Translations under genes and position numbers: made by a program
DNA from: an uncultured bacterium
GTDB taxonomy: Bacteria > Margulisbacteria > WOR-1 > CAVSGV01
Assembly: GCA_963699255.1 (NCBI GenBank)
Contig: OY969425.1
Span: forward strand, 840,001 to 872,000
DNA length: 32,000 nucleotides
Direction: 5' to 3'
The notes under the pieces: generated by a model
Told to the model about the DNA's origin: nothing
The model's input: only the letters and a program-made list of their open reading frames with translations
The model's database searches: none
Shown: piece by piece, positions 27,819-31,108 of the stretch
How positions within the stretch are numbered: position 1 is the first letter of the stretch
Layout: each line of letters begins with the position of its first letter

Positions 27819-28580
27819 TTATTGCGGGTTTGCTTCCTGCGCGGATATCAGCTCTTCGGCGATCTCTTTCATGGATTTTCTGCTGTCCATGCTCTGTTTT
27901 TGCAGCTTCCTGTAAGCCTCTTCCTCAGACAGCCCTTCACTTTTCATGATCATGCCCTTTGCTTTCTCGGTCAGCTTTCTTTCCTCCAGCCTTACGGCGA
28001 GCATTTCCTTCTCTTCTGCAAGCTTCCTGTTCGATATCGCTATCGCCGCCTGATTCGCGACCGCGGAAACAAGCCTGATCTCGCCGGCGGTGAACTTGTG
28101 CGGCCTGGAAGTGTAGCTGTTCAATACCCCAATAGCCTTTCCTTTCACGATGAGAGGGACCGCAAGCATTGAACAGAGTTTTTCTTTTTTTGCTATCTCC
28201 GGGAACATGTAATCCGGTTCCTTTTTTACGTCAAGCACCGTTATCGGCTTTTTTTTGCTGACCGCCTTCCCGCTGATCGACTGGCCGACCTTTACATTCG
28301 GCTTGTCTGTGTAACTATCGCTTAAGCTCTGCGTGGCGGCAAGCCGGAGCTCTTTCTCGTTTTCACTTAGCAACATCAGGGAGCATATCTTGGAGCCCAT
28401 GACCTCAGCCGTCATCGCGACAATTATCTTCAGGATATCATCAAGGTACATGTCCGAAACGATGGCGGTGCTTACCTTGCCAAGAGTTTCAATTTCTTTT
28501 TGGAGCGATCGGGATGATTTTGTCATTGATATATTTCCTAAATTTTCCCTGACGATAGATTGGCTGGGAACTCGAGTCAT
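27819..28580 (-). CDS. GAF-ANTAR RNA-binding antiterminator-type regulator
   Basis: The GAF region is LDDILKIIVAMTAEVMGSKICSLMLL...GKAIGVLNSY. The C-terminal ANTAR domain is ERKLTEKAKGMIMKSEGLSEEEAYRKLQKQSMDSRKSMKEIAEELI. ATG 28526 (SD AGGAAA) is an alternative start. Confidence 0.85.
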   Translation of the reverse strand: MTRVPSQSIVRENLGNISMTKSSRSLQKEIETLGKVSTAIVSDMYLDDILKIIVAMTAEVMGSKICSLMLLSENEKELRLAATQSLSDSYTDKPNVKVGQSISGKAVSKKKPITVLDVKKEPDYMFPEIAKKEKLCSMLAVPLIVKGKAIGVLNSYTSRPHKFTAGEIRLVSAVANQAAIAISNRKLAEEKEMLAVRLEERKLTEKAKGMIMKSEGLSEEEAYRKLQKQSMDSRKSMKEIAEELISAQEANPQ

Positions 28581-28598
28581 CTTCGAACTTTCTCGATA

Positions 28599-28627
28599 AT
28601 TCTACCTAATACTATCCACGGGAGCAA
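28599..28627 (-). promoter_or_regulatory. Sigma-70 promoter of the GAF-ANTAR gene
   Basis: The - strand reads TTGCTC, 17 nt, TAGAAT. Confidence 0.5.
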
Positions 28628-28640
28628 GAAGCACTTATGA

Positions 28641-28684
28641 CTACCGATACTGTGACTTAGCCGGGGAGTTTCACAGTATCCCTC
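28641..28684. repeat. Inverted pair of the 19-bp CGGnTAnTTCACAGTATC site (left cluster)
   Basis: GATACTGTGA (28646-28655) and TCACAGTATC (28671-28680) are perfect 10-bp inverted repeats 15 bp apart, centred on CCGG. The flanks match the right-hand copies. Confidence 0.7.
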
Positions 28685-28694
28685 TATATACGAT

Positions 28695-28747
28695 ACGCGT
28701 ACACAGGCACGTACGCACGAGCGCAGGCGCGCGGCCAAGCGCGCACT
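28695..28747. other. GC-rich tract of about 53 bp with almost continuous purine-pyrimidine alternation
   Basis: Alternating runs are ACGCGTACACA, CACGTACGCACG, GCGCA, GCGCGCG and GCGCGCAC. The tract includes the hairpin GCGCGC/ggccaa/GCGCGC (28727-28744) and abuts an AT-rich stretch (28750-28815). Confidence 0.5.
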
Positions 28748-29324
28748 AGGTATTTATTAATTAATATAATACGTATTCATTTGTACAGTTGATTGATAGC
28801 TGTTGTTCATTAGCATTAGAGAAAGACAAAGGATCAATGACTTTGGATATGAACACGAACAGAAGACAGAAGAACCTGACCCAAAGAGTTGAAGACACGC
28901 TGAGAGCTTGAAGTTATTGCTGTTCACACAGCCAAAGAAGCTTTCGGGATCCTCGAAAAGAAGAAGCTCATTGTCCCGCTACGCTGGACGGGACAAGCTG
29001 TCCGTCACAAAGATTGTTCGACTCGTGGCTCTTGAGGAACGTTCCCTGCCACGATGGGCCCGCCAAAGGCCAAGGCAGGCGAAGCTGGTCTGTCTGCTTA
29101 ATCTGAGCGTTTCCAGAGCGGAATGAAGGCATTCCTTGAGCCTCCTCAAGTGATTGCTCATTGTATTTCTGTGTTGCTTTTTCCATGGTTCCGCCAAAGG
29201 AGAATGACCAACTACCAATGAACAATGCCCCCGCCTTCGCCGAGGCTTCCGCCAGAGGCGGACAAGTCGACAGGCAGGTAATTAAGGTGTGCTACGCACA
29301 TTCAAAGGAGAAAGACCATAACTC

Positions 29325-29453
29325 CTGCTCCGCCTCCGGCGGTATTTGACTTTGTGTCATGCCGCCCGCCAATGCCCGCCAAAGAAAAGAACCAAAGCTA
29401 CTGCTCCGCCTTCGGCGGTATTTGTCTTCGTGTTGTGCCGCGCCGCCCGCCAA
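29325..29453 (+). repeat. Two direct repeats of about 50 bp, each starting with a small GC hairpin
   Basis: Copy A (29325-29372) is CTGCTCCGCCTCCGGCGGTATTTGACTTTGTGTCATGCCGCCCGCCAA. Copy B (29401-29453) is CTGCTCCGCCTTCGGCGGTATTTGTCTTCGTGTTGTGCCGCGCCGCCCGCCAA. Each has a CCGCC/GGCGG hairpin followed by TATTTG. Confidence 0.7.
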
Positions 29454-29541
29454 ACCACTCCCAAAATGATTGGGGAAAGAATCCGCAAAACCAAGCATGA
29501 AAAATGAGCAAAAACTGATGAAATCCTGAGGCCAAAAACAA

Positions 29542-29602
29542 GCGGTTACTTCACAGTATCCTACCGGGTATTCCACAGTATCGAGCGGTTAGTTCACAGT
29601 AA
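29542..29602 (+). repeat. Three phased direct copies of the 19-bp site (right cluster), abutting the promoter of 29639-31108
   Basis: The copies are GCGGTTACTTCACAGTATC (29542-29560), CGGGTATTCCACAGTATC (29565-29582) and GCGGTTAGTTCACAGTAAG (29584-29602). The CACAGTA cores start at 29552, 29574 and 29595, a spacing of 22 and 21 bp. Confidence 0.75.
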
Positions 29603-29603
29603 G

Positions 29604-29632
29604 TTGACTTTTTAAGCCCCAAGGGTGATAAT
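29604..29632 (+). promoter_or_regulatory. Sigma-70 promoter predicting a leaderless mRNA for 29639-31108
   Basis: TTGACT (29604-29609), 17 nt, then GATAAT (29627-32). The seventh nt after the -10 element is the A of ATG 29639, and there is no SD. Confidence 0.55.
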
Positions 29633-29638
29633 TCCCCC

Positions 29639-31108
29639 ATGATTGAAGAGCTTGAATACTTAACTTTGAATGAAATGAAAGCTTTACTCAATTCCATCGA
29701 CGACACCCGCGACCGGGCAATTATTGCTCTATTTCTTAATACGGGCCTCTTCTTGAACGAGGTAACCTCCCTGAAAGTCGACTCAATCGACTGGAAGAAA
29801 AAGTCACTTTCCGTCCCCGGCAACAGGAAAAGAACTATCCCACTGAATGACCAGGTTTTTGAGGCGCTTGCCAAGTGGTCGAAAGAGCGTCCGTCGGGCA
29901 AGATTCCCGATCTTTTTGTCACCACAAAAGGAGAGCTGAAAGACCTCAGCAGCCGCGGCGTCGATTATCTGATAAGAAAGTACGCTGAACAGGCTGGCAT
30001 AAAGAAACGGGTTAATCCGCAGATACTTCGCAATACATTTGCGGTCCGGTTATTCTCAGAAGAACCCTCCGTGGAAAAAGCTTCTGCCATTCTGGGTATA
30101 TCCGATCCGGAATCGGTAAATCGCTATATACAGGCCTCCAAGCGACCGCCGGCCAAGGTCGAGATAACTGAAAAGCTTGAGCATATCGATACCCGCCATC
30201 CTCTTGTTAAAGCCGTTTCCAAGATGTTCCCTACTAAGCCGAAAATCGTTAAGCCAACGACCGCAATAAAAGGCGCTATTACCCCAAGCCCCGAAGAAGT
30301 GATTTTCGGCAGAGAGAATATAATCAGCGATATAAAAGCTGATATCGGCAAAAGCCAGTCTGTTCTATTGACAGGTCCTTTGGGGATAGGCAAAACACAT
30401 CTATTGAAGCACATGTCCAAAGCGTTGGGGCCTAATACATTATATATCTCTTCTCCCACTCCGCTAAAGATTGTCCTTACGCAAATTCTCAACAAGCTTG
30501 ATCCTGCATGGCAGGAGCAATTAAATACAAGAGCTTCAACGAAAGAGATAGCCGATTACATCGTGAAAATAAAGGGCGCAAAGCCCCCTATCCTGATAAT
30601 CGACAATTTGAACAACATAAAAATATCGGATATCGACCCTATCTTGACCTTACTGGATAACTTCCCCATACTTGCCGCGGCTGACGAGACAAAACCGAAG
30701 CTCAAACAGGTCTGGTGGAAGTTCAAGGAGATCGAGCTTCCGCCGTTAAAAGAGGATTCCTCGAAGGAGCTTATCAAATACCTGACGCAGAACCTAACTA
30801 TCAGCGATTATGAAATGCTTGAAACAAGGATATTGACCCTGTCAAACGGCCTTCCCCTTGCAATCGTTGACATGATCCATCAGATAAGCCATATCCCGAT
30901 GGTTTCAAAAGATGTTATTCGTGATGTTTACCACGAAGCCGGAATACATTATCGCGACTGGACAACCGTTATAATTTTCATTTACTGGATAGCTGTCATT
31001 TTCAGGTTCGTCGCGCTTGGCACAAAAAGTTATGAGGCCTATTTTCTCGCCGGTTTCGGCGTGACTCTTTTGATGATCTTAAGAAATGTTATGTCGATGT
31101 TGAAATAA
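29639..31108 (+). CDS. Fusion protein: degenerate tyrosine-recombinase-like domain, then a STAND/NB-ARC-like P-loop NTPase, then two C-terminal TM helices
   Basis: The N-terminal about 165 aa follow the integrase catalytic-domain pattern, but TGLFLNEV replaces TGLRxSE, QILRNTFA replaces HxLRHTFA and LGISD replaces LGH; the RYIQ Tyr is kept. The middle region has FGRE...LLTGPLGIGKTHLL, ILIIDNLN, FPILAAAD, IELPPL and NGLPLAI. The C-terminus is WTTVIIFIYWIAVIFRFVALG...FLAGFGVTLLMIL. Confidence 0.65.
   Translation: MIEELEYLTLNEMKALLNSIDDTRDRAIIALFLNTGLFLNEVTSLKVDSIDWKKKSLSVPGNRKRTIPLNDQVFEALAKWSKERPSGKIPDLFVTTKGELKDLSSRGVDYLIRKYAEQAGIKKRVNPQILRNTFAVRLFSEEPSVEKASAILGISDPESVNRYIQASKRPPAKVEITEKLEHIDTRHPLVKAVSKMFPTKPKIVKPTTAIKGAITPSPEEVIFGRENIISDIKADIGKSQSVLLTGPLGIGKTHLLKHMSKALGPNTLYISSPTPLKIVLTQILNKLDPAWQEQLNTRASTKEIADYIVKIKGAKPPILIIDNLNNIKISDIDPILTLLDNFPILAAADETKPKLKQVWWKFKEIELPPLKEDSSKELIKYLTQNLTISDYEMLETRILTLSNGLPLAIVDMIHQISHIPMVSKDVIRDVYHEAGIHYRDWTTVIIFIYWIAVIFRFVALGTKSYEAYFLAGFGVTLLMILRNVMSMLK

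Follow-up and report, generated by a model that had tools for sequence, protein, structure and literature searches.

RESULTS

Five repeated sites beside an integrase-ATPase gene

The window analyzed here is a 32,000-nucleotide stretch of DNA, positions 840001-872000 of the single 1.77-Mb contig of an uncultured Margulisbacteria genome. It carries five copies of a 19-bp unit next to a gene (29639..31108, + strand) for a 489-residue protein, here called the integrase-ATPase, that joins a degenerate integrase-like domain to an ATPase. Two of the copies form an inverted pair on the left (28646..28680), in which GATACTGTGA at 28646-28655 faces TCACAGTATC at 28671-28680 across a 15-bp spacer with CCGG in its center; the pair spans 35 bp and has perfect 10-bp arms, with the CGG ends at the center and the GTATC ends outward. 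The other three units lie head to tail on the right (29541..29602, + strand), their CACAGTA cores starting at 29552, 29574 and 29595. Spaced 22 + 21 bp from start to start, these direct units sit on one face of the helix over about six turns. All five were found where an earlier reading of the window, made from the letters alone (the sequence-only reading), had placed them, and the repeat finder that returned both clusters also bore out the matching 5' flanks it had noticed, CGGnTAn being common to the copies. The unit has two parts: a little-changing GGnTAn box, then four or five variable nucleotides (TTCAC here; CCGC or CCGT at other loci), then an A(G/A/T)TATC-type box. Unit 3 ends at 29601 and a sigma-70-type promoter-like site for the integrase-ATPase operon, TTGACT-17-GATAAT (29604..29632, + strand; 10/12 matches in a promoter scan), begins at 29604, so that the last copy does abut a -35 element.

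With up to one mismatch, the window holds six occurrences of the 10-mer core where 1.06 are expected, a count that no shuffle out of 100 attained. The exact core has 15 copies genome-wide, compared with two for a reversed control pattern; 11 of the 15 fall within two paralogous islands and the other four are isolated. The genome search proposed with the sequence-only reading has thus turned up two loci of like layout, with inverted pairs at genome positions 868646/868671, 886929/886954, 1054167/1054192 and 1094675/1094700, and direct arrays starting from 869551 and from 1055442. A looser genome-wide pattern of the full unit was dropped: its match count equalled that of its reversed control. 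Sequence comparison supports the view that the five repeats are real, conserved and specific sites of the protein-binding type, tied to the neighboring integrase-like gene.

The sites recur with the gene at related loci

At least 180 proteins of ~490 residues belong to the integrase-ATPase family, and all organism names given for them are Margulisbacteria, WOR-1, Saganbacteria or candidate-phyla. Of 146 Margulisbacteria species genomes, 29 carry the family, often with two to four copies each. The homolog matches from outside Margulisbacteria (L011 and L016) are ordinary recombinases of ~290-310 residues with no fusion.

At 24 species loci, the 450 bp preceding the gene were scanned with 100 spacing pairs to find the set of three 19-mers most similar to one another. 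The best triple was spaced exactly 22 + 21 bp in 10 of the 24, each above every shuffle, with protein identity down to 41-48%; an eleventh locus gave 21 + 21. By chance, 22 + 21 would come out on top at about 1 locus in 100. The same spacing was read by eye at L026, L028, L034, L037, L042 and L043. At the 10 loci with this spacing the arrays end 24-109 bp before the operon start. In several of the loci that had no matching triple, other genes precede the integrase-ATPase gene, and the L026 array stands before the first gene of the operon. The sequence-only reading depended on the repeats accompanying orthologs of the fusion protein, and at orthologous loci the arrays are indeed present.

The inverted pair spans 35 bp in all seven loci that have it (six genomes or contigs). 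Together with a following CCT(C/A/T)T(A/T)T motif, it occurs four times in this genome, twice each in genomes G001 and G002, and in G003, L042, L043 and metagenome contigs; a pattern scan of metagenomes returned 11 matches, seven of them true modules and four unrelated coding DNA. The pair arms resemble the direct repeats of their own locus: CACAGTATC here, CCGCAACATC versus CCGCAATATC at L026, CCGCACCATC versus CCGCACTATC at L043, and CCGTACTATC versus CCGTATTATC at L042. A check for co-variation, also suggested earlier, gave a modest signal: the arms tend to change with the direct repeats of the locus, but the margin is small for the three non-CACAG loci.

The inverted pair lies in one arm of a long inverted repeat

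The sequence-only reading took the outermost copies to delimit a 0.9-kb segment in the manner of terminal inverted repeats. That segment is instead one arm (28564..29475) of a 912-bp inverted repeat, whose partner lies beyond the window, at genome positions 887045-886132 (99.2% identity over 914 columns). The five sites do not bracket a 0.9-kb unit, because the 0.9-kb block is itself the repeated unit and the direct repeats lie outside it, only on the side where the integrase-ATPase paralog follows. Sequence comparison identifies this block, with its inverted pair, as one arm of a kilobase inverted repeat that brackets a putatively mobile defense island. The block brackets 16.6 kb here (island 1), and its counterpart brackets ~38 kb in the second island (island 2), whose arms are 1,292 bp long and 100% identical (genome positions 1054069-1055360 and 1094807-1093516). 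The inverted pair is present in all four repeat arms of this genome. The arms of islands 1 and 2 are ~80% alike over the outer 365 bp only, inverted pair included, and in two related genomes the arms are about 930 and 640 bp.

Within an island the two arms are far closer to each other (99.2% identity in island 1, 100% in island 2, 93.8% in G002 and 92.5% in G001) than arms of different islands or genomes (73-80%). The long inverted repeats are unlikely to be an assembly artefact, because short-read metagenome contigs of a related population break where the repeat predicts: an 18-kb contig begins ~280 bp ahead of the gene and runs to the outer edge of an inverted arm, and two others each contain 122 bp of arm, joined to host flank in one and to the recombinase in the other. 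G001 and G002 are apparently long-read metagenome-assembled genomes in which frameshift errors are possible, so gene integrity in them should not be over-read; in G002 the integrase-ATPase gene comes out as four separate matches, an internal TGA lying in one of them, and two internal TGA codons interrupt the recombinase gene.

Inside the block, a 9-copy alignment shows conserved stretches next to the pair (28681..28790, + strand): CCTCTATATA, a GC-rich alternating stretch with a GCGCGC hairpin, and then an AT-rich stretch. The description of the segment as free of open reading frames (ORFs) holds in part. The short frame at 28789-28911 is open in both islands, but G001 has a 22-nucleotide (nt) deletion and an unrelated peptide there, and we discarded it as a conserved small protein. 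A ribosome-binding site (RBS) with an ATG at ~28839 (AAAGGATCAATG; 28820-28911) is nevertheless kept in all arm copies. The peptide behind this ATG has 24 residues here and is an unrelated Cys-rich peptide in G001; judging from the sequence, the region may be a leader or a regulatory micro-ORF. Two tandem 76-nt copies (29305..29441, + strand), each a CCGCC-loop-GGCGG hairpin with a T-rich tail, lie in the poorly conserved interior of the arm, where repeated CCGCCAAAGG-type motifs are also present. An Rfam search of the 0.9-kb block, its 76-nt copies and related loci returned no family at threshold, and a known RNA in the block was set aside on that basis. Between the inverted pair and the direct array, the interior (2720-3370 in L026, 8720-9600 in L043) is unalignable across lineages and keeps a length of 0.7-1.2 kb; by eye it has a strong strand asymmetry, A-poor first and then G-poor and CCGCC-rich.

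Island ends and cargo

The outer end of island 1 (28564..28592, - strand) mimics the 3' end of a tRNA (GTTCGAA ... CCCAG), as do the outer ends of the other arms, and includes the presumed crossover core, as judged from junction comparison and tRNA positions. Just beyond the right arm of each island lies a gene for a large serine recombinase whose 3' end overlaps an opposite-strand tRNA gene. The left junction reads ...GTTCCCAG and then host DNA; the internal junction beside the right arm reads ...GTTCCCAG and then TAATCTTATAGC; and the tRNA junction reads ...GTCCCCCAG and then TAATCTTATAGC. Island 2 follows a like pattern, with GCTA common to its junctions where island 1 has the core CCCAG. 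These ends fit serine-recombinase integration at a tRNA gene.

Outside the right arm, each island carries an inverted copy of the 3' end of its own recombinase gene (197 bp at 97.5% identity in island 1, 161 bp at 98% in island 2). Repeats of this kind bracket each of the three large-serine-recombinase genes of this genome, at positions 887041-887237/888763-888958, 1094804-1094964/1096573-1096733 and 1105047-1105258/1107541-1107752 (L002, L005 and L039), the last of these in a compact 2.7-kb recombinase element (212 bp, 98%), and they also occur in G002 (123 bp, 100%) and on metagenome contig L042 (171 bp, 99%). Since the outer flank of the right arm is an inverted recombinase end, the internal junction is exactly the sequence that joining the two ends of the island would give. 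By its sequence, we take it to be an attP-like site retained, inverted, in the integrated island. The long inverted repeats and this internal junction are what the present analysis adds to the sequence-only reading. In the more distant genome G003 the island has a simple form, with the site block once, the recombinase at the far end by a tRNA-Glu gene and no long repeats. The simple form reads as ancestral and the inverted duplication as derived; the junctions agree equally well with nested elements, in which a small recombinase unit occupies one end of another island.

Both islands share a head of three genes, which encode the integrase-ATPase, a long membrane protein of the YdjM-like type and a small protein with a Poly_export domain. 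The variable cargo behind it includes type IIG or ISP restriction-modification genes, a PD-(D/E)XK nuclease, a WYL regulator and ImmA, and in island 2 also a giant surface protein module. After the cargo come a DprA-like gene, a 60-residue Cys-rich ORF and then the right arm. The DprA-like gene (genome positions 882354-882911 and 1091986-1092525) is adenine-poor in both islands and has several overlapping open frames; the 60-residue CxxC...CxxC micro-ORF (883117-883299 and 1093271-1093453) is found in both islands and in the compact recombinase element.

Several further observations concern the island surroundings. The recombinase frames continue through the antisense of the target tRNA gene (L002:2954-3024, L005:8730-8801 and L039:3750-3821, all - strand); the last ~40 residues are therefore host-encoded and would change on excision. 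A 147-residue ORF of island 1, beside a ClpP gene, matches the FtsZ C-terminal domain only (L001:13032-13475, + strand), and an intact ftsZ lies just past the tRNA end of the island (L002:3775-4842, - strand). The repeat-bounded island of G001 (L025/L023) has no adjacent serine recombinase and sits between two divergently oriented paralogs of a large protein that the genome analyzed here encodes at 481.1 kb. At a distant ortholog locus (43% identity; L030:5320-5522) the island head follows directly after two tRNA genes, downstream of gidA, gidB, parA and parB, with a Y1 transposase gene between gidB and parA.

The integrase-ATPase as candidate binder

The first 170 residues of the integrase-ATPase align to the XerA and XerD catalytic domains, and Pfam assigns residues 7-168 to a degenerate tyrosine-recombinase catalytic-domain fold. 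The degeneracy noticed in the sequence-only reading extends family-wide: Arg-I is Phe38, His-II is Gln and His-III is Ile154. Across 60 family members, Arg131 (Arg-II) is invariant and Tyr163 nearly so. An AAA+ ATPase follows at about residues 220-345, plus a lid, with an intact Walker A motif and a Walker B motif that reads IIDN; the last 50 residues form two hydrophobic C-terminal helices by sequence and in the structure model. In that model (mean predicted local distance difference test score, pLDDT, 82.7), the N-terminal part matches XerA best, and the best matches to the middle are AAA+ modules of RFC, RuvB and RuvBL type.

From these sequence comparisons, the product of the neighboring gene, a "dead" integrase-ATPase with a membrane anchor, is the most likely binder of the sites. 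The site cores are identical between the two islands of this genome. Between islands, protein identity is 90% for the integrase-ATPase, 90% for the YdjM-like protein, 95% for the Poly_export-domain protein, 47% for the serine recombinase and ~30% for ImmA; among the three array-linked conserved proteins, the integrase-ATPase is the only one with a DNA-binding fold. Other candidates were set aside. The serine recombinase and ImmA are only 47% and ~30% identical despite identical site cores; the compact recombinase element carries both the DprA-like and the Cys-rich gene and has no sites; and a small Sigma70_r4 protein occurs only in L026, L034 and L035 and is missing from several loci with arrays. 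A full-text literature search found no description of this protein family or of the island architecture.

A predicted outward promoter at the island end

A putative outward-facing promoter, TTGCTC-17-TAGAAT, can be read on the - strand at 28599..28627 (-35 at 28627-28622, -10 at 28604-28599), its presumed start site ~71 bp downstream of the center of the inverted pair. Both islands keep the block in their arms, and it is also conserved in G002, G003, L042, L043, L047 and L049. In right-hand arms it aims at the serine recombinase gene, and in the left arm of island 1 at a host gene for a GAF-ANTAR protein. The annotated start of that host gene (28580) falls within the repeat arm of the island; a likelier start is Met19 at 28526, preceded by an AGGAAA ribosome-binding site. 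Measured from the island junction at 28564, Met19 is 38 nt downstream.

DISCUSSION

Transcription-factor operators are positioned at the promoters of the genes they control and conserved with those promoters. At this locus unit 3 lies against a -35 element, arrays recur near operon starts, and the inverted pair lies by the outward block. We somewhat favor the interpretation, drawn from these arrangements, that the five units serve as operator-like sites, some at the promoter of the binder's own gene and some at a predicted outward promoter near the attachment end of the island. The five units would be recognition sites for an island-encoded DNA-binding protein. Three of them stand against the -35 of what would be its own operon, encoding the integrase-ATPase, the YdjM-like membrane protein and the Poly_export-domain protein, and because these phased units abut that -35 the protein would control its own operon; the autoregulation suggested in the sequence-only reading fits as far as the position of unit 3 goes. 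The inverted pair, ~100 bp inside the attachment end, would act upstream of the outward promoter, and the pair-bearing block, without the direct repeats, is duplicated inverted at the far side, where pair and promoter would face the serine recombinase gene. A single protein could then couple expression of its own operon with transcription across the island ends, a membrane-anchored, ATP-switched factor setting the level of both the operon and outbound transcription. The sites, their geometry, conservation and linkage to the gene, the long inverted repeats and the anatomy of the junctions are plain in the DNA; we infer which protein binds, the two promoters and the sense in which regulation runs.

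Several points weigh against this interpretation. The inverted pair is found in only some lineages. In the distance matrix of pair arms and direct repeats the diagonal is lowest or tied, by only 1-3 mismatches for the three non-CACAG loci, and the sites adjoin the gene, so joint inheritance would be expected anyway. The outward promoter has a weak -35, falls below the promoter-scan threshold and its block is missing from the G001 copies. We know of no tested precedent for a lone recombinase catalytic domain, with no core-binding domain, that recognizes a 19-bp unit. Finally, an operator model leaves the retention of kilobase arms unexplained.

Some other factor might bind the sites, be it an island-encoded repressor of the Xre/ImmA type, the serine recombinase or a transcription factor of the host. 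ImmA-type genes are present in both islands and helix-turn-helix (HTH)-type genes in island 2, L026, L042 and L043, and the pair is only ~100 bp from the attachment core. A different binder is nonetheless unlikely. The divergence of the recombinases and of ImmA between islands (47% and ~30% identity) sits poorly with identical site cores; arrays occur at loci that have no recombinase or HTH gene within 8-10 kb; the asymmetric head-to-tail units differ from typical palindromic Xre operators; and outside the islands the genome holds just four isolated core matches.

Could the units be iteron-type or anchoring sites, serving replication, segregation or membrane tethering of an excised island? On this view the phased repeats would be where the AAA+ protein assembles, with the AT-rich tract by the pair as the unwinding element. 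Iteron plasmids classically combine direct repeats phased at 21-22 bp with the repeat unit in inverted form, and that layout is found here; the ATPase is an AAA+ module with a lid whose fold neighbors are RFC and RuvB; a GC-rich and then an AT-rich block adjoins the pair; and the candidate protein has a membrane anchor. Plasmid iterons, however, are phased direct repeats beside both an AT-rich unwinding element and a Rep gene, whereas here the direct repeats lie on a promoter, the AT-rich tract is beside the inverted pair instead, and no Rep, primase or helicase was recognized in the island. Walker B reads D-N rather than D-E, and the chromosome has its own DnaA, with the cumulative GC-skew minimum nearby (~1.37-1.44 Mb), far from both islands. 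We regard this explanation as rather unlikely. A related idea, a chromosomal replication initiator, raised by the ortholog beside gidA/gidB/parAB, was rejected because dnaA lies at 1.3695 Mb with the GC-skew minimum there.

A third explanation makes the inverted pairs recombination sites, with arm-arm recombination flipping the 16.6-kb interior and the direct repeats accessory; the agent would be the degenerate integrase, which keeps Tyr and Arg-II, or plain homologous recombination. Arm identities of 92.5-100% within islands against 73-80% between them point to repeated homogenization, and the yeast 2-micron plasmid offers a parallel, in which FLP flips DNA between 599-bp repeats. The 35-bp span is near the 34 bp of loxP and FRT, and Tyr163 and Arg131 have been kept across the family. 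Moreover, at L042 the integrase-ATPase gene is beside the recombinase-proximal copy, whereas here, and apparently in G002 and a related metagenome population, it is beside the distal copy, a difference such as an inversion would produce. On the other side, tyrosine-recombinase core sites have inverted arms of 11-13 bp around a crossover region of 6-8 bp, and here, although the span is 35 bp in seven loci, the perfect arms are 10 bp and stand 15 bp apart; Arg-I, His-II and His-III, three residues of the R-K-H-R-H/W-Y active site, are replaced family-wide; and no alternative isomer was seen within any single population. The pair is single-copy in G003, so its original role cannot be inversion. 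Taken together, flipping seems to us rather unlikely. We see a slim chance that the kilobase inverted repeats, each with its 35-bp pair, make up a flip system or a two-attP design and that the island exists in two isomers that differ in the end facing the serine recombinase, with the dead integrase-ATPase as a membrane-bound synapsis or control factor; if so, a recombinase would have been turned into a regulator of another recombinase's element.

Three further readings fall more simply. Arm-type sites of the lambda kind are bound by the integrase's separate N-terminal arm-binding domain, and the candidate binder has no such extension, because its Pfam match begins at residue 7 at model position 2. 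Transposase end-binding arrays, as in Tn7 and Mu, occupy both termini of the mobile unit and come with a transposase gene and a target-site duplication; this array lies ~1 kb inside the island end on one side only, and no DDE transposase, target-site duplication or arm-binding domain was seen at the island. An att site of a large serine recombinase is a 40-50 bp imperfect dyad centered on the crossover and recombinase-specific, and we rejected this assignment: the pair center is ~97-135 bp from the junction, and identical sites accompany 47%-identical recombinases.

Elements of the locus nonetheless recall several known systems. As in the iteron plasmids pPS10, P1, F and R6K, an asymmetric unit of ~19-22 bp is repeated directly in phase and also paired in inverted orientation, and it adjoins the gene for its presumed binder, with one cluster on that gene's promoter. 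In those plasmids Rep binds direct iterons and an inverted operator; here it is the direct repeats and not the inverted pair that occupy the promoter, and in place of a winged-helix Rep the candidate binder is an integrase-fold/AAA+/membrane protein. As with loxP, FRT and dif, there is an adjacent gene with a tyrosine-recombinase fold and, as in the 2-micron FLP/FRT system, inverted arms spanning 35 bp are embedded in each copy of a long inverted repeat on either side of a large segment; unlike in those systems, the protein has lost three of its six catalytic residues and lacks a core-binding domain, the perfect arms are 15 bp apart, and no product of recombination was observed. Tn3/gamma-delta res, ToxR and CadC likewise involve proteins of recombination families or with membrane anchors, repeated intergenic sites and flanking promoters (binding here being predicted), but the fold is another one, an ATPase module stands between the DNA-binding domain and the membrane anchor, and the sites extend over ~1 kb and are duplicated at both island ends. 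The island as a whole resembles tRNA-integrating islands with phiC31/Bxb1-type integrases: a recombinase gene lies at one end with its 3' end against a tRNA gene, a short core is common to the junctions (CCCAG in island 1, GCTA in island 2), and the cargo is variable and defense-rich. It differs from them in keeping inside an uninterrupted inverted end-joining junction, comprising 0.9-1.3 kb plus 160-200 bp of recombinase 3' end. We know of no described serine-recombinase element with an internal inverted attP-like copy and concertedly evolving kilobase arms.

An outward promoter-like block of one arm precedes, by 38 nt, the likely start of the host's GAF-ANTAR nitrogen regulator gene, and for this reason the island may affect expression of host nitrogen genes. 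The conserved 22 + 21 bp and 35-bp geometries are ready probes for binding. If the dead integrase domain does bind these sites, a recombinase fold would have been re-used as a sequence-specific, membrane-tethered, ATP-switched DNA-binding module, one that would head a widespread family of defense-carrying islands, and the architecture of these islands could reveal a new control of integration, excision or orientation.

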